64,000 bases of DNA from a virus, in the IMG/VR virus record IMGVR_UViG_3300042878_001497, positions 96,001-160,000 of that record. One strand, given 5' to 3'. How positions within the stretch are numbered: position 1 is the stretch's first letter; every line of letters starts with the position of its first letter. Below, in pieces: positions 5,514 to 24,518 of the stretch. The notes below the pieces were generated by a model that had not been told where the DNA came from, searched no databases, and saw only the letters and a program-made list of their open reading frames with translations. A program made the translations under genes and the position numbers.

Positions 5514-6252
5514 AATATACTACAGAATATCTGAGGCAGGTTATAATAAGATTAAACCACCTTATATTAATAATGAGAATTGCCTGCGAAACTTTGTAAA
5601 GCATTTCGATCCTAGCTCTATTACTGTAATTGCGGATAATATAGGAGAGGAGACTTTTGAAATGATCTGCAAGTATGTACCGGCTGAAAATATTCAAAGA
5701 CATTCTGTAGGTAATGGAGCAGGTACATTCAATCTTGCTTTAGATCAAGCCCTTCAGCTAGAAGATGACACTACAGTATACTTCGTAGAAAATGACTACC
5801 TGCATAGAGCAGGAGCTAGACAAGCTCTAGAAGAAATCTTTCAGACAGGAGTACAGTACATTACTCTTTACGATCATCCAGATAAGTACGTACTAGCAGA
5901 ACATGGAGGAAACAAACTATGTAAAGATGGTCCTGAGATTACTCGTGTATTTGTATCTCGCTACTCTCACTGGAAGGTTACTAATTCAACTACTATGACC
6001 TTTGCTGCTAAAGCAAAGACATTAAAAGCAGACGAAGACATCCTACGGAAGTATACAAACGGCATACATCCAGAGAGTGGAAAAGTTACAGGCCATCCTT
6101 ATGACTTCTCTATGTTTTTGGAATTAAACGCTCGCAAGCGTGTATTAATAAGCCCGATACCCGGGTACTCAACTCATGGAGAGACTTATTTTATGTCTCC
6201 TTTAATCAACTGGGAAAACGAAGTCGATGATTACCACGTGCATCTCCACTAA
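5506..6252 (+). CDS. putative glycosyltransferase
   Basis: VIADN, YFVENDYLH, PGYSTHGE; cluster context. Confidence 0.65.
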   Translation: MLKIYYRISEAGYNKIKPPYINNENCLRNFVKHFDPSSITVIADNIGEETFEMICKYVPAENIQRHSVGNGAGTFNLALDQALQLEDDTTVYFVENDYLHRAGARQALEEIFQTGVQYITLYDHPDKYVLAEHGGNKLCKDGPEITRVFVSRYSHWKVTNSTTMTFAAKAKTLKADEDILRKYTNGIHPESGKVTGHPYDFSMFLELNARKRVLISPIPGYSTHGETYFMSPLINWENEVDDYHVHLH

Positions 6253-12826: not shown

Positions 12827-13219
12827 ATGGATAAAAGGTTCTGTACTGTGTGTGGGGATGAGATTAATCCCTTGCGTGTTAAGGCTCTGCCTGAAACTAA
12901 GACTTGTATTAATCACTCTACTGTAGGAGCGAAACGAGGTCGTATTCTCACTTTAGGAGAAGGAGATCATACTTACAATGAGATTGAAATTCTTGACGAA
13001 GAAACCTACCGCAAGGTAGTAGCTATAGAGTTAGGTGTGGATCGTCTAGCAGAAGAGATGCCTGAGATTCAAAACTACGATCAAACTCTGGTTGCTGATG
13101 ATACTCGTGCATTGAAAGAGAAAGCAGAGAAGTTTTTGGATGATGAAGAAGATGTAAAACTTCTAGAAGATCCAGATGAAGTAATTGAAGACTCAGAAGA
13201 AGAAGAGGAGGAAGAATAG
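12827..13219 (+). CDS. DksA/TraR-type zinc-finger protein with acidic tail
   Basis: CTVCGDEINPLRVKALPETKTCINH fits the DksA/TraR finger pattern; poly-Glu C-terminus. Confidence 0.75.
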   Translation: MDKRFCTVCGDEINPLRVKALPETKTCINHSTVGAKRGRILTLGEGDHTYNEIEILDEETYRKVVAIELGVDRLAEEMPEIQNYDQTLVADDTRALKEKAEKFLDDEEDVKLLEDPDEVIEDSEEEEEEE

Positions 13220-13866
13220 TGGAGGAAAGAAAGAGAGGGAGACCGAGTAAGATACTCCTCAGAGAGGATATCGAGCGTGCAATCCGGATGACTAAATCCA
13301 ATAAGGCTGCCGCTCGATACCTTCACTGCTCCTTTCCTCATTACAAAAAGTACGCCAACCTCTTCAAGGCAGAAGATGGAAGGACGCTTTTTGAGACACA
13401 TCTCAATCAAGCCGGTAAAGGAGTTCCCAAGTTTCTAACAGGAAGAGCTAAACAAGCTCCTTTGAAAGAGATCTTAGACGGAACGTTCCCAGTAGAACAT
13501 TTTAAGCCAGCTAAGATCAAGGCAGCTCTAATTTCAGAAGGGTACCTAGCCGAGCAGTGTAATAGATGTGACTTTGGAGAAGCTAGATTGCTTGACGGTA
13601 AAGTACCTCTCATTCTTACTTTCAAAGATAAGAATAAACATAACTACCATCGAGATAACATCGAGCTACTTTGTTATAACTGCTCCTTTCTCTATGCTGC
13701 TTCTCCTATTTCCGATGATCAGGTAGAACAGATGGAGGATTATGTAGAGCTGCAAGTAAAAGACTATGATTGGGAGATCGATCAAGCACATATCGATCAC
13801 CTAAAGGAGTTAGGACTGTGGGAAGATAATAAAAAACCTGGTGAGGAATTTATATCTCGGCAATGA
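13219..13866 (+). CDS. HNH-fold zinc-binding protein, possibly catalytically degenerate
   Basis: CNRC...LILTFKDKNKHNYHRDNIELLCYNC; N-terminal KRGRPSK and helical region. GTG start. Confidence 0.65.
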   Translation: MEERKRGRPSKILLREDIERAIRMTKSNKAAARYLHCSFPHYKKYANLFKAEDGRTLFETHLNQAGKGVPKFLTGRAKQAPLKEILDGTFPVEHFKPAKIKAALISEGYLAEQCNRCDFGEARLLDGKVPLILTFKDKNKHNYHRDNIELLCYNCSFLYAASPISDDQVEQMEDYVELQVKDYDWEIDQAHIDHLKELGLWEDNKKPGEEFISRQ

Positions 13867-15787: not shown

Positions 15788-15869
15788 CACAAGACTTCTC
15801 AAATGGCGTACGCTGTGAGGTTGTGTAAGAAAGGTTATGCGTTCGGTGTTGTTGAAAGATTCTATGAGC

Positions 15870-16313
15870 ATGTCTAAGATTAAAGCAATTATCGATCAGA
15901 AGTTTAAACTGGTAGGCACGATGGCTACCGGGATGAAGGGTGGTGAAGAAGGTAAGAGAGGTAGAAAGGTTAACCCAAGTAAAAGACTTATCTTTAACTT
16001 CAACCCAGACCTAGCCAAAGAAGAAGATGTAGTGTATATGATGTGCGATGGAGAAGAGATTCTTTACATCGGGTATACAGCTAACTCTCTACAGCAACGC
16101 TTTGAAGGATACGACAAAGGCCGCTTTGCAAAGATGGGCGGAACTAACAAGAAGATCTTTAAGAAGATGATTGAGAACGATCACATGCTTGAGATATATT
16201 CCACAAAGGGGGATAAATTATTCTGGCATGGTGTTATTCTCTCACTAAGCAGGAGCTTGGAATACGCTTTGATTAACAAATACAGTCCAAAGTGGAACAG
16301 CAGGGTCCGGTAA
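15870..16313 (+). CDS. GIY-YIG family endonuclease
   Basis: VVYMM..ILYIGYT..LQQRF..LEYALINKYSPKWN. Start uncertain (15864 or 15870). Confidence 0.75.
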   Translation: MSKIKAIIDQKFKLVGTMATGMKGGEEGKRGRKVNPSKRLIFNFNPDLAKEEDVVYMMCDGEEILYIGYTANSLQQRFEGYDKGRFAKMGGTNKKIFKKMIENDHMLEIYSTKGDKLFWHGVILSLSRSLEYALINKYSPKWNSRVR

Positions 16314-16893: not shown

Positions 16894-17157
16894 ATGATGA
16901 ATAAGATAAAATCAACACATAAGGCAGAGTTACTCGGCTACCACTGGACAGAGGCATACTCTAAAACTAGGAATACAATCTGGACAAGTACTGGGGAGGA
17001 ACATCTGGAGGCATGTCTGAGGATGGTAGAAAATTATGAGAGACTTGTGCTAGACTTTGGTCCTACCTCCCTACAAGGACGTCAAATTGCTAAAGGGACT
17101 GTTAATGATCTCCTTTCTCTCATTAAGATAAAACGTAAGTTGATTAAGAAGGGATGA
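16894..17157 (+). CDS. hypothetical protein
   Basis: 87 aa ORF. Confidence 0.65.
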   Translation: MMNKIKSTHKAELLGYHWTEAYSKTRNTIWTSTGEEHLEACLRMVENYERLVLDFGPTSLQGRQIAKGTVNDLLSLIKIKRKLIKKG

Positions 17158-17364
17158 TGTTTAGAGGAAACCGTAGCGTATATAAAGATATTTGTATAGA
17201 GTGATATAGAGATATGGAGATATAAATTGTGTGTAGACTTAAAGCAGAGAGTGAAGTTAAAGTAAAGATTCAATAGCTAGTACCTGCCTACCCCTCTTGC
17301 AACTTTTTTCTCTATAGAATTTATTAAATTTTCAACCTTAAAGTAAAGCTTTAAGTATTCAGTA

Positions 17365-17558
17365 AACCGTAGAAAAAACCGTAACCCAGAAAACCGTATG
17401 CAGATAATCCTCCTTACAATCATCAGTGCCTTAACGTACAGAAAACCGTACCTACTAGGTAACCGTAGCCAGGAAACCGTCCCAGGTAACCGTAGGGAGA
17501 CAACCGTCCAGAAAACCGTAGGAGGAAACCGTAGGGAGGGAACCGTCCAGCCAACCGT
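17365..17558. repeat. array of 12 AACCGT hexamers (13th copy at 17169)
   Basis: Copies at 17365, 17377, 17392, 17444, 17461, 17475, 17488, 17502, 17514, 17527, 17541 and 17553; mostly 12-15 bp apart. Confidence 0.9.
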
Positions 17559-17630
17559 CCGTCTAGTGATCGATCTAGAGACTGGGACAGTTAAATCAAA
17601 GCTTGAAGTTAAAGCAGAGCTTTAAGTCGG

Positions 17631-17975
17631 ATGTACGTGGTGTATGCTCTGAGGCTGGATGACTATGTAGGTGTCCGCCTCTCTCCCTCTCAGGTTATTC
17701 TTAAGGTAGGAGTGTCGATGCATGATGCGGAGTACCGCCTAGACGCTAATGAGCGCTACGAAGGTAGAAATTCCTATCGAGCGCTTTTTAAAAAAATAGA
17801 AGTACTAGGGCAGAAAAAATTTAGGACCAAGGTAGAGGCTCTAGGGTATGAGCAAGCCCTACTGCAGGAGTTAGGCAGCAAGGACCTTAGTATACAGGAG
17901 CAGGTGAAGGGAGTAACTGAGTTGAGAGTTCTGACTCCAGACCGCCTGGCAGTAGTGCATCAGTGGATGAAATAA
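17631..17975 (+). CDS. GIY-YIG/T5orf172-like small nuclease
   Basis: YVVY...LKVGVS...R...EALGYEQALL...GVTE pattern. Confidence 0.55.
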   Translation: MYVVYALRLDDYVGVRLSPSQVILKVGVSMHDAEYRLDANERYEGRNSYRALFKKIEVLGQKKFRTKVEALGYEQALLQELGSKDLSIQEQVKGVTELRVLTPDRLAVVHQWMK

Positions 17976-18080
17976 CCTTCAAGCAAAGCTTTAAGTTAAA
18001 GTAAAGCTTTAAGTCTAGAGTATAAGGTACCGGCCCGTCTACTCTTCCGCCTCTCTTCCAAGGGCAGGCCCGTCAACCAT

Positions 18081-18114
18081 CCTAAATGTACGAAAAAAAA
18101 AGTTTGTGACCAAC
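18081..18114 (-). promoter_or_regulatory. leftward early-type promoter GTTG-N20-TACATTTAGG
   Basis: Reverse-complement match with exact 20-nt spacing, back-to-back with the promoter at 18124. No ORF downstream. Confidence 0.7.
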
Positions 18115-18180
18115 TAAAAAAAAGTTGGATTGAAAAAAGTTTGTGCCTATCTTTAGGTACAATTAAAAACAACAACTGTT

Positions 18181-18426
18181 ATGGCAAACATGAGCTACTG
18201 TCGATTTGAGAATACGTATAACGATCTTTTAGATTGTTTTGAGAATATCTGGAATGAAGCTGAAAACGAAAGAGATGAAAGGTATCGTGTTCGAATGATT
18301 CGTTTCCTTAAGGAGCAGCTTAATGAGATTGAGGAACTGAATGAAGAGTTAGATTTGAATGAAGAGTTAGATAAACCCGGAATGTTTATCGATGATAAAG
18401 AATGGGAAAAAGAAATGGGTCGATAG
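18181..18426 (+). CDS. small acidic early protein
   Basis: MANMSYCRFENTYNDLLDC...; own promoter. Confidence 0.8.
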   Translation: MANMSYCRFENTYNDLLDCFENIWNEAENERDERYRVRMIRFLKEQLNEIEELNEELDLNEELDKPGMFIDDKEWEKEMGR

Positions 18427-18480
18427 TTGACTATTTTAAATATAGTTCCTATCTTTAGTAAACAAATAAAAACAACGGTT

Positions 18481-18813
18481 ATGAAAAAAGAAAAGTTAAT
18501 ATTGAATGAGGAGATGGTTGGTACTTATATCAACCGGGTGCTATGGTCGGATATTATGCCCTTAGGTAGGATAGTATCTATCAAGAGTAAGACCAAGGTA
18601 CTAGTCCAGAGAGTGAAAGCAGGAGAGAATAAGGTCAAGATGGAGTTTGTGCCCGGAGGCTTTGCAGGTCATTGTGTCAACAACTACCAGCAGGACTATG
18701 ACTTCTACGATGAAGGGCAGCCCTTTGAGCTTTCTCTCAGTAGGAGCTCTATGAAGAGAAGCTTCTTGCAGTTTGCTAACTGCCCGATGAAGCATCACGA
18801 TTATAACTTCTAG
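18481..18813 (+). CDS. early hypothetical protein
   Basis: Start reassigned to ACGGTTATG at 18481. Confidence 0.8.
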   Translation: MKKEKLILNEEMVGTYINRVLWSDIMPLGRIVSIKSKTKVLVQRVKAGENKVKMEFVPGGFAGHCVNNYQQDYDFYDEGQPFELSLSRSSMKRSFLQFANCPMKHHDYNF

Positions 18814-18889
18814 GAAAAAAGTTTTGGGAGGGGGTTGGTTTATCCAACCTTCCTTCGTATATTTAGGTACAAACAAAAAAATAAAGGTT

Positions 18890-19042
18890 ATGAATGAAAA
18901 CATTAAAGAATTGGTGGTTGAATTTGCAGAAGCATTAGACGAATCAGTTGTAATAGCATTATTTGATGAGCTAAAAGCTGAGGATAAGCCTTTTGCAAAA
19001 GAGGCACTACTTCGGTATTTGTCAAAATATTTACCAATTTAG
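18890..19042 (+). CDS. small early protein (50 aa)
   Basis: Start reassigned to GGTTATG at 18890 (MNENIKELVVEF...). Confidence 0.75.
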   Translation: MNENIKELVVEFAEALDESVVIALFDELKAEDKPFAKEALLRYLSKYLPI

Positions 19043-19133
19043 GTAAGATAATTTCAAAAAAGTTTAGGAGGGGGTTGGTTTTACCGACCCTCTTTCTTAT
19101 CTTTAGGTATTAATAACAACAAACACAACAGTT

Positions 19134-19376
19134 ATGGAATTGAAATTGAAAGAAAGAGTTTTCGGATTTACTTGGAACTTCGAAACTGGTGAAGTAGGAG
19201 AAGTGTTTACTGAAGAGCTTACTTCAAAAGAGGTCCAGTTGATAGGTCGTGTCATGGGAGATGATGTATCATTGATTATATATAACTCAGATATCAGTTT
19301 AGTATTTGGTGATGATATCGAAAACCAAGATGAATTAGAGGAGATGGGATTAGCTGAAGTAATGGAATTTCTTTAG
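19134..19376 (+). CDS. small acidic early protein
   Basis: Own promoter; Glu/Asp-rich. Confidence 0.8.
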   Translation: MELKLKERVFGFTWNFETGEVGEVFTEELTSKEVQLIGRVMGDDVSLIIYNSDISLVFGDDIENQDELEEMGLAEVMEFL

Positions 19377-19437
19377 GAGGGGGTTGGTTTATCCAACCCT
19401 TCTTCGTATCTTTAGTAAACAAATAAAAAAAACGGTT

Positions 19438-19638
19438 ATGGAATTAGTAGAAGTAAAAAATCAGACTATCAATTATACTATCAAATTCGGTGGTAATATT
19501 TACAACCTCTTCTATTATGAAGATTTGATGTCTTATTCAGAGGAATTGACTGAAGTTTCAACTGGTTTGCCAGTCACAGATGATGATGAGTATGAAGCAG
19601 TGATGGAATTTTTTGCTGACAATCAGCCAAAGCTTTAA
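19438..19638 (+). CDS. small acidic early protein (66 aa)
   Basis: Start reassigned to ACGGTTATG at 19438. Confidence 0.75.
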   Translation: MELVEVKNQTINYTIKFGGNIYNLFYYEDLMSYSEELTEVSTGLPVTDDDEYEAVMEFFADNQPKL

Positions 19639-19700
19639 AAAAATAGTTGCTCAATTGAAATTTCGTTCTTATCTTTAGGTAAATAAAAACAACAACGGTT

Positions 19701-19811
19701 ATGGATGTACGTGATGTACTTGCTCAAAAGGAATTTGGAATGGATTATAATCAATTAGGTCCAAATGAGAAGGAGTGGGTGAATGATGAACTTGATAATT
19801 CCCTTAACTAA
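19701..19811 (+). CDS. 36 aa early peptide (not in ORF track)
   Basis: MDVRDVLAQKEFGMDYNQLGPNEKEWVNDELDNSLN, located exactly between two promoter units. Confidence 0.75.
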   Translation: MDVRDVLAQKEFGMDYNQLGPNEKEWVNDELDNSLN

Positions 19812-19869
19812 TAGTTGGTTGGTATTAGTCTAGTTACTATCTTTAGGTAAATAAAAACAACAAATGGTT

Positions 19870-20109
19870 ATGGGTTATCCTAGAAATTCAGTTAATCAAG
19901 TAGTAGAATATTTGAAAAAGCATAATTTTCAAACAGAATCTGAAATTCAAGAAAATGTTTGGGGTTATTTTAGAAATGAAACTAGGTTAGCAAATAAGAA
20001 ATTTGCTGACTTATTAAGAAGGGGTTTACGTAAAGGTTTATATTATAGAGTTAAACATAAAAAAAATAAAAGTCAATATGTTTATTTTATAGTTCCAGAA
20101 AATACCTAA
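19870..20109 (+). CDS. small basic early protein (possible winged helix)
   Basis: GGTTATG start at 19870; basic C-terminus. Confidence 0.7.
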   Translation: MGYPRNSVNQVVEYLKKHNFQTESEIQENVWGYFRNETRLANKKFADLLRRGLRKGLYYRVKHKKNKSQYVYFIVPENT

Positions 20110-20178
20110 TTATAAAGGGTCTAGTTTAACCCAGATCTTGTTCGTATATTTAGGTATAATAAGAAATAAATAAAGGTT

Positions 20179-20304
20179 ATGAAAAAGAATGATTTGATTG
20201 TAGTAATGCAGATAGCTATTTCGCTTTTAGATAAAGGTGAAGCAAATAAAGCTAATGGAGTTTTGAAAATAGCTCTAACGGAGGAATTTAGTTCTGGAAA
20301 ATAG
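20179..20304 (+). CDS. 41 aa early peptide (not in ORF track)
   Basis: MKKNDLIVVMQIAISLLDKGEANKANGVLKIALTEEFSSGK; TAG overlaps the next GTTG. Confidence 0.7.
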   Translation: MKKNDLIVVMQIAISLLDKGEANKANGVLKIALTEEFSSGK

Positions 20305-20358
20305 TTGGTTGGTATTAGTCTAGTTACTATCTTTAGATAAATAAAAACAACAACGGTT

Positions 20359-20835
20359 ATGAAAGTAAAAGAATTGAATGAAGGAATTTACAAGAAATTG
20401 GTTAATCTAGACTACAGCCGCAAAGAAAATTATTTGTATAAAACAAATGAAACTGAGTGGTGTGAGTTGGATGGTGAAATAAAAGATACAATTTTATCTT
20501 TTCCTATTCTCCAAATAGATTGGTATGCAGATCTAATGGATATTGAAGTCCTAGATGGTGACCAACAGTTTTACTTATTTGAAAGTGAAGGTAGAACGTT
20601 TCTAGTAGATACACAGGGTTATAATTACCCACGCTATATCATTGAGTTAAAAGGGTTCAATGGTGTAGATGACACATATGAACGAATGGATGGATTGGTT
20701 CGAATTGCTGATGTTGCGATTTTGAAATCTGTGGTTAAGAGTTTGGCTTTTGATTTGCAGGAAGAAGGATTTGATAGAGCAGATATCATCAACTTCATCG
20801 ATGCTCAAATCTACGGAGCACTTTTAGAAAAATAG
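20359..20835 (+). CDS. early hypothetical protein
   Basis: Own promoter; 158 aa; contains VDTQGYNYPRY. Confidence 0.8.
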   Translation: MKVKELNEGIYKKLVNLDYSRKENYLYKTNETEWCELDGEIKDTILSFPILQIDWYADLMDIEVLDGDQQFYLFESEGRTFLVDTQGYNYPRYIIELKGFNGVDDTYERMDGLVRIADVAILKSVVKSLAFDLQEEGFDRADIINFIDAQIYGALLEK

Positions 20836-20892
20836 TTGCCTCCTAAGAGTATAGTTCGTATCTTTAGGTATAATTAAAAACAAACAACGGTT

Positions 20893-21645
20893 ATGATGAA
20901 TGAAATTCAAGATCCCAATCAGCTTACTCTCGGTATTGAAAGCCAAGTATTGACTGTCGATCAGATAGAGCGAGTGGAAGCATTTAAAGAGCGATTGGAT
21001 AAGAGTAATAAGAATCTGAAAGCTTCTTTGCTCCGTAAGCAAGCTCTACTGTTAGAAAATGGCTTTGTCGAAGGTAAGGATTTTAGCTTCTCTATGGAGG
21101 AGGTAAATGAAAACGTAGATGTTAATGCTAATGGCTGGAATGATGCTGAATTAATCGTTACTGTGGATATTCTGCACGTCAAGGGGCAGTGTGCATTACT
21201 CTACGATCGATATGAAGTTACTTCTGATACGATTGTTCAGTCGACGGCTGGCTTTAGTATCGAGCAAAATAAAGTAGAGTGTTATACTATCAATAATAAT
21301 GGCCGGTGGGTTACCTTCCGTACGCTAAAAGAGAAGTTGGCTGATAAGAATTCTGCTGCTGAATGGGAGATGATATCTACTCGTAATAGGAAGTCAGTAC
21401 TCAGCTATACTGCTGAGAAGTATCAGAAGCTTGCTCCTGGGGCTGAAGTGGTGGTGGGTCGTGATGGTACGTCTAGAGGCCGTGATTACTACTCCTTCGA
21501 TACTGTGACTGTAAAGTTTGAGAATGGTAATCTGTTAGTTGTTAAGCCCGGATTTAAGAATGATGAGGAGTCAGTTTATCGCTTTATCGATGTAACGACT
21601 ACTGGTAAGAGTGCTGAAGAATTGGCTCAGTACCTCGGTCAATGA
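20893..21645 (+). CDS. early hypothetical protein
   Basis: Own promoter; 250 aa. Confidence 0.8.
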   Translation: MMNEIQDPNQLTLGIESQVLTVDQIERVEAFKERLDKSNKNLKASLLRKQALLLENGFVEGKDFSFSMEEVNENVDVNANGWNDAELIVTVDILHVKGQCALLYDRYEVTSDTIVQSTAGFSIEQNKVECYTINNNGRWVTFRTLKEKLADKNSAAEWEMISTRNRKSVLSYTAEKYQKLAPGAEVVVGRDGTSRGRDYYSFDTVTVKFENGNLLVVKPGFKNDEESVYRFIDVTTTGKSAEELAQYLGQ

Positions 21646-21809
21646 GGAGTAAGCTGATCAGAGTCTCTGAAGAGATTGCTAAGACGCTACGGAGGTGGGA
21701 TCCTAGTTCGCTAGGGTCCTACTCCATCGAGAGGAAGAAAGGTCCTAGGTACTTCACTGCAGTACAGGATTCGGACGGATGGGATATTATAACCTATTAC
21801 GTCGACTAA
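21642..21809 (+). CDS. 55 aa hypothetical protein (not in ORF track)
   Basis: MRSKLIRVSEEIAKTLRRWDP...IITYYVD; ATGA overlap. Confidence 0.55.
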   Translation: MRSKLIRVSEEIAKTLRRWDPSSLGSYSIERKKGPRYFTAVQDSDGWDIITYYVD

Positions 21810-21956
21810 GATATTTAGCCTCCTGGTTGGGCGCATATACACCAGGGTTGTTGTTTGTCTGGGTTGGGATCCTTCGGGATCTCTTCCTGGTTACAATAGT
21901 TGCCTTTAGAGAGTTTAGTTCGTATATTTAGGTATAATTAAAAACAAATAAAGGTT

Positions 21957-22139
21957 ATGTCAAACATCAAAGAAGAAGCGCTAATGGAAGTCGCTTATGC
22001 TTACGCTCATGCAGTAGGCATCCTCTCAGGCACTATGAATGTCCTGATCGATCATGTAGCTTCTTACACTGAAGAAGAGAAGATCGAGATGATGAAGAAA
22101 GCTTTGAAAGAGGCTGATGAAGCAATCGCTAATGCCTAA
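21957..22139 (+). CDS. small helical early protein
   Basis: Own promoter; 60 aa. Confidence 0.75.
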   Translation: MSNIKEEALMEVAYAYAHAVGILSGTMNVLIDHVASYTEEEKIEMMKKALKEADEAIANA

Positions 22140-22200
22140 ATAAGAGTTGGCCCTTCGGGGCCTTCTTCTTATCTTTAGTTAAATAAAAACAACAACGGTT

Positions 22201-22467
22201 ATGGTAAAAGAAATCACCTCAATGATGTCAGCACTCAAAGCAAAGGGTGTGAAGGTATGCGGCACAGCTTCAGAGTTCTACAGTGCTAAGACTCACATCG
22301 ACGGTATCTGGGTAGCAGCTGAGTACACCCCGGACCTATTCAACTACTGGTCTGAGGCTTGGGCTGATACGTTCGGTGTTAAGCCTTCACTCAACAAGCT
22401 GGTTGAGGAGTCGGGCTGGTACTTTGAGTGGCATGACGCCGGTACGATGATGGTGTGGAAGCAGTAA
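22201..22467 (+). CDS. early hypothetical protein
   Basis: Own promoter; contains GWYFEWHDAGT. Confidence 0.8.
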   Translation: MVKEITSMMSALKAKGVKVCGTASEFYSAKTHIDGIWVAAEYTPDLFNYWSEAWADTFGVKPSLNKLVEESGWYFEWHDAGTMMVWKQ

Positions 22468-22537
22468 CATAGAGTTGTCACCTGAGAGTATCCTTCATAT
22501 CTTTAGTAAACAGAATAACAACTAACAACAGCAAGAC

Positions 22538-22765
22538 ATGAACAAGAAAAAGTATCCTAAAGCCCAGCTTGACGCAGTCCTAGAAGGTGTATTGGTAGAA
22601 TCACTACAGCTCTGGCAGAATGCATTCATCCAGGAGTTAGACAAGATGAAGGCCGATGGTAAGATCCCGATGTTCCATCCTAACTGGACCGCTCAAATGC
22701 TGAGAGAGTTCGGACATCGGTTCAGGGTGCAGGAGCTAATCGATACCCCGGCAGTACAGGATTAA
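22538..22765 (+). CDS. early hypothetical protein
   Basis: Own promoter; 75 aa. Confidence 0.75.
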   Translation: MNKKKYPKAQLDAVLEGVLVESLQLWQNAFIQELDKMKADGKIPMFHPNWTAQMLREFGHRFRVQELIDTPAVQD

Positions 22766-22796
22766 GAGAGAGGGCCCTTAGGGGCTCTTTTTTTTT
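22766..22796 (+). terminator. intrinsic terminator closing the early array
   Basis: AGAGGGCCC-loop-GGGCTCTTT stem running into a T9 tract. Confidence 0.85.
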
Positions 22797-22993
22797 GACT
22801 GATGTCGTCAGGAGGTCAAGGTGAGAGCGGGGTGACGGCAAGGTGCTATAAACCTGCTAGTATATTTCACTATACGGTTTTCTCGACGGTTAGCTAGAGG
22901 TAACCCTAGTAATGCATCGCTGATCAAATTTTAAGGTATACTAATATATATTTATATATAGAAAGCAAGGGTACAAGCGCTTCAACGGGTTAA

Positions 22994-23272
22994 TTAATTA
23001 GATTTAGTTGAAGCTAGATCCTTCAACTCCTTTTTTGTTCTCTCTTCACATTTATCCACCCTACTGTCGATATGACGGTAGACTGCCTCCAGGTCCCGCC
23101 TTATGGCATTGTCCTGTTCGTTACTAAATTCGTATAACCTTTGTTCAGCTTTCTCAAAATCAGCTACTGCTTTGATAAGACTCTTAATTGTCACATAGTT
23201 CATAAACGTAACCGCAACTACTACCGAAGTAATAACAGCACCTACACCTAAAAGAAATGATATTGTTTCCAT
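22994..23272 (-). CDS. membrane-anchored coiled-coil protein; only credible minus-strand gene
   Basis: N-terminal hydrophobic helix FLLGVGAVITSVVVAVTF; own minus-strand promoter. Confidence 0.75.
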   Translation of the reverse strand: METISFLLGVGAVITSVVVAVTFMNYVTIKSLIKAVADFEKAEQRLYEFSNEQDNAIRRDLEAVYRHIDSRVDKCEERTKKELKDLASTKSN

Positions 23273-23320
23273 ATTATATATTTTATATATGTCAAAGCAC
23301 TTGTAGCACCCTTACTACGG

Positions 23321-23453
23321 TTTTAATATAAGAACTTTTGGTAGAAAAACCAACTATGTCCGGGGAAATTTTCCGGAAAAATTTTTATATATGTAGTTGT
23401 CTATATAATTATATCTTTATATATTTAATAATATAGGAGGAATCCTATTTATA
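23321..23453. promoter_or_regulatory. divergent promoters around a palindrome
   Basis: Minus-strand GTTG-N20-TATATTAAA (23354-23322), TTTTCCGGAAAA palindrome (23369-23380), plus-strand GTTG-N20-TATATTTAA (23396) and TATTTATA (23446). Confidence 0.7.
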
Positions 23454-23462
23454 TAAAAAACT

Positions 23463-23846
23463 ATGAAGCTTATCTCTGCTCTTCTTTCGGAATCTAAAAG
23501 CGGTATCTTTGACGGTAAAACTTACCTTGATGATGCTACTTCGGCTATGGAGTTTGAGAAAGGGTACGAGGCCTTAGCTAGATTTGTTCATCCTAGACTA
23601 GTTATCAAAAAAGGCCACGATCCCGATCTAAAAATGGATTTAACCATAGCTTATGAAGAGCCTTCGGATTTACACTTTAGGTATATCGAGACTACGGGAG
23701 AATTTTTCTACGATGAAAAAATCTTCAAAGCAATCCTTCAGACCCCGGCCGTAAGAGAGAAACTAGGTAAGCTTTGGAATATCTCCCCGGACCCGGTAGA
23801 GGTATTTCGCCGCTACGGTGCTGTTACAACTAAACTATCAGCGTGA
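23463..23846 (+). CDS. hypothetical protein with MKLxxLLxE leader
   Basis: Begins MKLISALLSES; late motif upstream. Confidence 0.75.
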   Translation: MKLISALLSESKSGIFDGKTYLDDATSAMEFEKGYEALARFVHPRLVIKKGHDPDLKMDLTIAYEEPSDLHFRYIETTGEFFYDEKIFKAILQTPAVREKLGKLWNISPDPVEVFRRYGAVTTKLSA

Positions 23847-24271
23847 AAGCTCTACCACCTGCCTTTCTATCGATCTTCGATTACGATGATCAGGATGACC
23901 TTAGTAAGGAGGGGTTTACTAAGGCGGTGATCGATTACACCCAGCATCCGTACATCATTTTCGGTACCGTGATCAAATGCGTTGAGAACTTCTTTATCAT
24001 TAATGAGATGTACCGTAAAAAATACGGAGAGAGATATCAATCAATTGAGCAGACCGTGCGAAAGACTTACTTTGATAGAGTATTCACTTACCTAGAAAGA
24101 TTCGATGAGAGTAGATATGAGCATATAGTAGAGGCTAGAAAATTTACTCCTCAGGAAATTGCCTTTGCTATGGAGGAGTTAAGAGATCACTATGAGGGTA
24201 TTGAAGAGTATGAAAGATGTGCACGAATCCAAAAGATTTATAATATTTTAGCAGTAGAAGTTGCTTCTTAA
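23843..24271 (+). CDS. hypothetical protein with C-terminal UVR-like motif
   Basis: YEGIEEYERCARIQKI; GTG start. Confidence 0.65.
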   Translation: MKALPPAFLSIFDYDDQDDLSKEGFTKAVIDYTQHPYIIFGTVIKCVENFFIINEMYRKKYGERYQSIEQTVRKTYFDRVFTYLERFDESRYEHIVEARKFTPQEIAFAMEELRDHYEGIEEYERCARIQKIYNILAVEVAS

Positions 24272-24314
24272 GCATTTACTTACTATCTTTAAGTATCAAT
24301 AAAAAATAAAGGTT

Positions 24315-24518
24315 ATGCTTAGTACGATCATTTACTACATCATTGTAGGAGTTACTTTTAACTTCCTATGGGATTTTGTTGTCTCAAAGACTCGAAAAGA
24401 GGAAAACCGTTTCACTATGTTAGAGCGTATTATCGTGACTATTATCTGGCCGATAACTATACTCTTCTTTATCTTTATTTTAGCTAGGAATCTATTTTTC
24501 GGTAACGATCAAGAGTAA
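24315..24518 (+). CDS. small two-helix membrane protein
   Basis: Two hydrophobic segments; early promoter GTTG(24260)-N20-TATCTTTAAG and GGTTATG start. Confidence 0.75.
   Translation: MLSTIIYYIIVGVTFNFLWDFVVSKTRKEENRFTMLERIIVTIIWPITILFFIFILARNLFFGNDQE

Follow-up and report, generated by a model that had tools for sequence, protein, structure and literature searches.

An oriented iteron array in the control region of an aquatic phage family

What is the role of a hexamer that is repeated 12 times, always in the same orientation, in a phage control region, and why does its reverse complement stand directly before the start codons of several early genes nearby? These questions are raised by the AACCGT array in the IMG/VR virus record IMGVR_UViG_3300042878_001497, of which a stretch of 64,000 nt was analyzed (the window; it corresponds to the minus strand of a 102,159-bp contig, positions 14551-78550). 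The array is real, conserved and non-coding, and its iteron differs between clades of related phages. It belongs to a generally known type of DNA iteron array, and the phage family that carries it is unstudied. Of the functions that we weighed for it, protein binding at a replication origin appears most likely, although this assignment is tentative.

On the + strand, 12 copies of AACCGT were counted within 194 bp (17365-17558), as the earlier note had stated, and an extra copy is located at 17169; the same motif count yielded no copy on the − strand of the array region. Altogether, 13 of the 19 + strand copies of the whole contig are found in this region. The spacing is variable, again as described before, with copy-to-copy distances of 12-17 bp and a single gap of 52 bp. 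The region comprises the following elements:

17169..17174, + strand: solitary iteron (GAGGAAACCGTAG), remnant of iteron cluster 1 (motif count and extended-unit comparison)
17177..17360, no strand: AT-rich, easily melted spacer between both iteron clusters (duplex-stability windows, palindromes, conserved block)
about 17304-17320, no strand: conserved block TTTTTTCTCTATAG in the spacer, kept in all clades
17365, 17377, 17392, 17444, 17461, 17475, 17488, 17502, 17514, 17527, 17541 and 17553, + strand: starts of the AACCGT array copies (motif count)
17365..17397, + strand: iteron sub-cluster of 3 copies (motif count and extended-unit comparison)
17444..17558, + strand: main iteron cluster of 9 copies, 12-17 bp apart, consensus AGnAAACCGTA, GC content about 57%

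The hexamer is the core of an extended unit of about 12 bp, which reads AGnAAACCGTA in the clade of the window and TAGAnACCCGTT in the sister clade. The AG at positions −4/−3 is common to the extended consensus of both clades, and the cores differ by a single base. In the comparison with the relative L005, the iteron cores are more conserved than the spacers (0.94 vs. 0.81); over the closer pairs, the values were 0.81-0.94 for cores and 0.52-0.81 for spacers, figures to be read with a caveat about the aligner. The comparison with relatives revealed no conserved ORF across the arrays.

To collect relatives, 19 of the 22 nt of a purine-rich segment to the right of the array, which had first been seen to be identical in the window and in the distant Flavobacterium phage vB_FspM_immuto, served as the search pattern. 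This 19-mer matched 24 loci on viral contigs and 97 loci in metagenomes, and about 120 related phage contigs with a syntenic array were obtained, from lakes, estuaries and the sea. A scan of viral contigs for AACCGT-N5-9 triplets returned mostly unrelated matches and was uninformative. Upstream of the 19-mer element, the loci carry either ACCCGT or AACCGT arrays, in constant orientation. The spacing is 11-13 bp, or 23-25 bp and about 35 bp where copies have decayed, and the usual layout consists of two clusters that are split by 200-380 bp of AT-rich DNA. At the place equivalent to the solitary iteron of the window, the ACCCGT-type relatives have a cluster 1 with 3-7 copies. In immuto, two ACCCGT(T) clusters come first, and beyond them lie TTAAAG-N5-CTTTAA palindromes, a 50-nt element that is nearly identical to that of the window, and a leftward promoter of the early type. 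All clades, with the divergent relative L022 among them, have the block TTTTTT(T)CTATA(A/G) just to the left of iteron cluster 2 (in L001 at about 5770-5783). In L022, 3-4 copies of CCCGCCGTC and five scattered copies of AACCTTCC replace the A(A/C)CCGT array (oriented, −1080 to −336 from the element).

Copy number and spacing of the array differ between close relatives through gain and loss of whole units, and the region is hyperplastic, with gene cassettes that are swapped between palindromes. These features would be expected of a selectively neutral minisatellite in a recombination-prone non-coding region. However, at least 59 distinct loci from both clades have the array, at the same place and in the same orientation, and its cores are conserved above the spacers, so that neutrality is the least probable of the explanations that we name and appears highly improbable.

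The nearest named relative is immuto, with about 80% identity over short pieces only. Nearly all ORFs of the window are on the + strand, and the genes of immuto are likewise confined to one strand. Immuto has a T4 gp20-like portal, and a DnaB-type helicase, a primase, a recombinase and polymerases of its own. Upstream of the array, DUF932 and HNH genes are syntenic between the window phage and immuto. The array is located in the single large gene-free control region of aquatic, Flavobacterium-type, one-strand myophages with a T4-type terminase. For this widespread, unstudied family, the analysis defines the anatomy of the control region, which combines oriented iterons of two specificities, sequence-fixed palindromes and a new small RNA.

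The array does not change together with the early-gene leaders

The early genes form one block directly downstream of the array, and they are preceded by cassettes of a common form:

18125..24320, + strand: about 15 rightward promoter-leader cassettes of early genes, of the form TTG-N19-TATCTTTAG(G)TAAAtAAAAACAACAACGGTTATG

With 0.34 occurrences expected per strand, the pattern TTG-N18-20-TA..TTTAG was counted 15 times on the + strand and twice on the − strand. In six cassettes (18481, 19438, 19701, 20359, 20893 and 22201) ACGGTT directly precedes the ATG. The other leaders have AAGGTT, ATGGTT, ACAGTT or ACTGTT, and 12 of the about 15 cassettes end with GTTATG. The six ACGGTT sites and the (G)GTTATG ends of most other cassettes had been listed correctly in the earlier note, which proposed two RNA models on this basis, either a minus-strand RNA that carries 12 ACGGUU sites and titrates a leader-binding protein, or a plus-strand RNA that acts as a multivalent antisense RNA against the early start regions.

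Composite promoter/stem-loop cassettes of this type, termed PeSL, are known from T4-like phages, where they recombine (PMC2839356, PMC4122927). As in those phages, each tiny early gene has its own, very similar promoter-leader unit, often with a stem-loop between both promoter boxes (e.g., TTGGCCCTTCGGGGCC at 22147), whereas the promoter belongs to the Bacteroidota type (TTG ... TAnnTTTAG) and is not a sigma-70 promoter. The likeness concerns the leader side and not the array. Because the cassettes are PeSL-like, the leader hexamer is repeated many times, and because such cassettes recombine, one leader variant spreads. The first early gene (18181-18426) encodes a protein of 81 aa with the N-terminus MANMSYCRFENT that belongs to phrog_8760, and it is among the regions with the best conservation to immuto at the DNA level.

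If array and leaders interacted, their hexamers should change together in relatives. The leaders were counted in distinct loci that have at least two recognisable cassettes. In 29 loci with ACCCGT arrays, none of the 188 leaders has ACGGGT and one has ACGGTT. The loci with AACCGT arrays are of two types: 14 of them lack ACGGTT leaders altogether (72 leaders, 49 of which have AAGGTT), and in the remaining 16 loci ACGGTT is present in 56 of 120 leaders. In a tree of P0001, a protein encoded next to the array, all loci with ACGGTT leaders fall into one clade with 100/100 support, and none is found outside of it. Therefore, the association represents a single event, and no co-variation of array and leader hexamers was detected.

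Several further observations concern the match itself. AAGGTT, the common leader, is already identical to the iteron complement in five of six bases. The match between array and leaders never exceeds six bases, and even orthologous cassettes disagree, as the first early gene has ACTGTT in the window and ACGGTT in L005. When the array RNA was folded, as the earlier note had suggested, the z-scores were +1.52 for the minus strand and +1.02 for the plus strand (200 shuffles), so that on either strand the array is no more structured than shuffled sequences. The duplexes of leaders with the array have energies of −10 to −18 kcal/mol for ACGGUU leaders and −8.5 to −17 kcal/mol for other leaders, and the two ranges overlap. 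Control duplexes with shuffled arrays, at −9.2 ± 1.7 kcal/mol and −14.5 kcal/mol for the best, come near the values of the ACGGUU leaders.

These results speak against both RNA models. In the CsrB/RsmZ sponge RNAs, after which the first model was patterned, the RNA is well folded, its hairpin loops present the motifs, and these agree with the binding site in the target across species. Like these RNAs, the array contains a short motif many times over a small distance, but it folds no better than shuffled sequences, and its motif fails to track the leader among relatives. Direct comparison thus removes the appealing but mistaken reading of the locus as a Csr-like sponge of a phage.

The third proposal of the earlier note, DNA iterons of a transcription-primed origin with a coincidental 6-nt match, fared better: the DNA iterons and the coincidence stand, and the transcription-primed origin is plausible, with a genome-junction or packaging array like that of T7 about as likely. 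Judged from the sequences, the agreement with the ACGGTT leader arose late and in one lineage, by coincidence, and has no function. An ancestral AAGGTT leader would have matched the iteron complement in five of six positions, and one clade would then have fixed the ACGGTT variant.

A coupling of array and leaders that exists in the subclade of the window only has to be weighed against this view. At the RNA level, an array transcript could titrate a leader-binding factor or pair with ACGGUU leaders. At the DNA level, the iteron-binding protein could occupy the same double-stranded site (AACCGT equals ACGGTT) at +15 to +20 of the early units and shut them off. ACGGTT leaders in numbers are indeed confined to phages with AACCGT arrays (the 56 of 120 leaders in 16 loci, compared with 1 of 188 in the ACCCGT loci), and their clade has the largest arrays, mostly 12-16 copies vs. 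5-12 elsewhere. If the coupling were true, early-gene shut-off would depend on what state the origin or junction is in, and the growth of the array to 12-16 copies would be part of it. Yet the association goes back to a single phylogenetic event, the array is kept without a matching leader in 43 other loci, the match stops at 6 nt, orthologous cassettes differ, only six of 15 cassettes have the site, and neither a structural nor a duplex signal was found. Such a coupling is therefore very improbable in our view. The divergent relative L022, which has AAGGTT leaders, was considered as a case of co-variation through its five AACCTTCC copies and was rejected, as these copies are scattered and form no array, and other phages with AAGGTT leaders have 0-1 copies.

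A leftward promoter and a conserved structured small RNA

To the right of the array, a promoter points leftward toward it:

18082..18113, − strand: leftward early-type promoter TTGGTC-N17-TACATTTAG, with the same boxes and spacing as the rightward early promoters
18018..18077, − strand: 5' domain of a conserved structured small RNA (covariation in alignment A2)

The earlier note had described this site, which it placed at 18114-18081, as a promoter without an ORF, and no conserved ORF was found downstream of it. The promoter is kept in all relatives. Its predicted transcript is a structured small RNA, and this adjacent RNA is the most novel solid result of the analysis. The outer helix pairs 18070-18066 with 18036-18032, and an enclosed hairpin pairs 18065-18062 with 18052-18049. 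In alignment A2, which contains 68 distinct sequences, the hairpin is 97% paired and 57 cells are changed on both sides; one of its pairs is GU in 26, CG in 25 and AU in 14 sequences. The observed covariation score was reached by none of 500 shuffles. The wobble G-U pairs exist only in the minus-strand reading. The hairpin is followed by the purine-rich segment GGAAGAGUAGACGGGCCGGUAC (18048-18027), from which the search pattern was taken and which is constant in every sequence collected. The immuto version of the RNA folds with z = −2.95.

The possibility of a micro-ORF within the leftward RNA was dismissed, as the ATG frames differ between relatives in alignment A2. No Rfam match to the leftward RNA was obtained at the gathering score or at E ≤ 5. 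Among prokaryotes, the 19-mer was found in one of 185,579 genomes, on a 3.3-kb contig of a metagenome-assembled genome, and the search therefore gave no hint that the RNA imitates a sequence of the host. The small RNA is a candidate for a new RNA family that appears to be restricted to the phage family of the window.

When judged strictly, 15 of 33 ACCCGT-type loci have a terminator, consisting of a GC-rich hairpin and a U-run, that would end the RNA after 130-190 nt and thus short of the array. This is a further argument against the RNA models, and because about half of the ACCCGT-type relatives have such a terminator, the RNA and the iterons may be unrelated. The stretch from the leftward promoter to the array of the window yielded no terminator, an observation that favors the coupling of array and leaders discussed above.

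The array as a possible replication origin

If the array acts as DNA, which process does it serve? From the anatomy of the region we infer protein binding, a role in replication initiation and a link between RNA and array, in the following way. The AACCGT array would act as double-stranded DNA, and its iterons would be landing sites for a clade-specific, sequence-specific phage protein, for which the small neighbouring genes offer no more than candidates. Iterons, AT-rich spacer and the nearby ORF-less early promoter would together constitute the origin. The promoter would make the structured, purine-rich RNA, the iteron-bound protein would organise or open the DNA, and the early transcript would help priming, as at the origins of T4 and T7.

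Clusters of direct repeats in one orientation, as are typical of iteron-type origins, are present at the locus. Clustered direct repeats beside an AT-rich stretch that melts easily are shared with the iteron origins of the plasmids RK2 and R6K and of phage lambda, and with the origins of T4 (oriF/oriG with a promoter and an unwinding element, and oriE with its 12-nt repeats and an early promoter). Also in favor are the clade-specific small genes next to the array and, in immuto, the T4-type replication genes and the headful-type terminase. An early promoter that fires an untranslated RNA nearby is also a feature of T4 origins, and the change of the iteron sequence between clades is what is seen for pairs of initiators and iterons. 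In the spacer, the duplex stabilities of the 60-bp windows at 17170 and 17310 are −65.8 and −65.5, compared with a mean of −75.7 (sd 4.6) over the whole window and a value of −64.7 for the weakest 1%. With values near the weakest 1-2% of the window, an adjacent AT-rich unwinding region is present, which is weak evidence for an origin because AT-rich intergenic DNA is common.

Several observations weigh against an origin. The GC skew keeps its sign across the array, and no DnaA box was found between 16.8 and 18.2 kb. No initiator could be recognised; the model of P0001 is a plain three-helix bundle without a match to a DNA-binding fold. In contrast to the known iteron origins, the window contains no Rep-like or O-like gene, and its units have about 12 bp and are contiguous, whereas those of the iteron origins have 17-22 bp. 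Classical initiator arrays also have a tighter spacing than the 12-17 bp of the window. If the primer RNA ran leftward, the fork would meet all transcription head-on, and the terminator before the array in about half of the ACCCGT-type relatives would keep the RNA from reaching the iterons. T4 origins use transcripts from early or middle promoters, and oriE has evenly spaced 12-nt repeats, which were never tied to origin function, however (PMC3016281). A search for the oriE iterons in a stretch of the T4 record turned up a single tandem repeat, a coding one of period 24 in gene 5, which could not be confirmed as the oriE array. Therefore, oriE is a weak analogue. Finally, the closest architecture that we found, that of the SRL and SRR arrays of T7, is located at genome ends and not at an origin.

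Resemblance to the arrays at the genome ends of T7

This architecture leads to the alternative that the array marks a genome junction or a packaging site, in the manner of T7 SRL/SRR or of the pac site of P1. The two clusters would then flank the site at which concatemers are recognised and cut, or a terminal repeat; the small terminase or a protein of DNA maturation would be the ligand of the iterons, and the early genes would adjoin them since that end enters the cell first. The left end of T7 has 12 copies of CCTAAAG with a 13-bp period and in one orientation, beside the 160-bp terminal repeat. The leftward, ORF-less host promoter A0 lies among these copies, the early promoters are located just downstream, and a second array of the same orientation (SRR) is found on the other side of the terminal repeat.

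The correspondence to the window is extensive. Both systems have about 12 copies of a 6-7-bp core with a period of 12-13 bp and in one orientation. In both, a segment of a few hundred bp has an array on either side, the early promoters follow directly downstream, a host-type promoter without an ORF points leftward in the vicinity, and the genes are confined to one strand. In addition, the terminal repeat of phiEco32 also contains ACGGGG/ACGGGT repeats, and the location of the early genes in one block directly downstream of the array would fit a junction. The differences are that T7 has another core sequence and its own type of terminase, that its arrays abut a proven terminal repeat, and that A0 lies inside the array, whereas the promoter of the window is 520 bp away and makes a conserved structured RNA. 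We know of no function of the T7 arrays, which also counts against a transfer of this kind.

The terminase and the contig ends bear on this alternative directly. The large terminase of immuto is of the T4 gp17 type, 26-33% identical to those of T4-like phages, and not of a fixed-end type, and its gene is located 52 kb from the array region. T4-like phages package their DNA by the headful mechanism and have no fixed ends, and the T4-type terminase of immuto predicts the same for this phage. No terminase gene was found on the contig of the window itself, which is 63% complete according to CheckV. The paper on Baltic Flavobacterium phages mentions neither immuto nor genome ends. When contig ends were mapped in 20 IMG/VR records and 97 metagenome contigs, they proved to be enriched close to the palindromes, yet they were spread over repeats and did not gather at a single coordinate in the spacer; one 93%-complete contig passes through the region without a break. 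The scattered ends are consistent with repeat-induced assembly breaks, and no terminus was called. In our estimate, a junction or packaging array is nearly as likely as the origin. The contig of the window itself ends about 78 kb to the right of the window start, inside a long collagen-like tandem repeat (GGTACTGCTACTCAAGGTATTCAAGGTGTACAAGGTACAACA) at which the assembly breaks.

The position of the array also invites an explanation in terms of transcription. A regulator that coats the iterons could insulate the early block from upstream read-through, or it could switch an adjacent early-type promoter. On one side of the array the rightward gene train ends, and on the other side the first early promoters begin; in most relatives cluster 2 ends 14-119 bp before an early-type promoter, and cluster 1 starts right after a terminator. 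However, the distance to this promoter is not conserved, and the window and at least 19 relatives lack the promoter, have a T5orf172-like gene instead and still keep the array. Moreover, a roadblock does not need two clusters around an AT-rich spacer. A boundary or operator array thus appears improbable, and what remains of the probability falls to something that we have not thought of.

We continue to prefer the origin. If the iteron-reading protein and the job of the small RNA were found, they would reveal how a T4-related phage of Bacteroidota with all its genes on one strand initiates replication or processes its DNA to maturity. The arrays of T7, which are of the same design and still unexplained, might gain light from this.

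Palindromes and neighbouring genes

The array is surrounded by palindromes and small genes:

16894..17157, + strand: P0001, 87 aa, directly upstream of the array, candidate array-associated protein
17239-17276 and 17336-17357, no strand: TTAAAG-N5-CTTTAA palindromes in the spacer
17561..17582, no strand: palindrome GTCTAGTGATCGATCTAGAGAC at the right edge of the array
17591..17628, no strand: pair of 18-bp TTAAAG-N5-CTTTAA palindromes, arms fixed, loops free
17631..17975, + strand: P0003, 114 aa, T5orf172/GIY-YIG-like, between the palindrome pairs (fold and feature matches)
17978..18015, no strand: pair of 18-bp palindromes, in the 3' part of the leftward transcript

The 18-bp palindromes are present in 0-4 copies per relative and bracket the array and swappable gene cassettes. 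Because their arms are fixed in sequence and their loops vary, they point to a site for a protein and not to a covarying hairpin. They are probably sites for a dimeric protein or borders of cassettes.

P0001 homologues are found at the equivalent position in 36 of 43 AACCGT-type loci and in none of 37 ACCCGT-type loci. The AF2 model of P0001 is a three-helix bundle (pLDDT 84.5) with a basic C-terminal helix, LLSLIKIKRK, for which no significant PDB fold match was obtained. Neither P0001 nor P0003 has a sequence match in Pfam, PHROG or PDB. For P0003, the top fold matches of the AF2 model (pLDDT 86.4) are the GIY-YIG domains of Slx1, HIGLE and BH0048 (E 0.03-0.4), and its atlas feature matches to T5orf172 clusters have values of 0.93 and 0.91. 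P0003 is present at the equivalent place in at least 19 AACCGT-type loci and is vertically inherited in the AACCGT clade. In L005, the slot of P0003 between the palindromes is occupied instead by four more iterons, an early promoter and a gene for a membrane protein. The ACCCGT-type loci, in turn, encode a very basic protein of 45-56 aa (MKTIQVTLQERWAAS..KSKK.Y.RK.KH) between the array and the small RNA in 36 of 37 cases (e.g., L001:6295-6441), for which no family match was found. Because all of these small genes track the clade, they cannot identify the protein that reads the iterons.

Genes for homing-type nucleases crowd the region, as genes for HNH and GIY-YIG endonucleases are also located a few kb upstream of the array (13219-13866 and 15837-16313).

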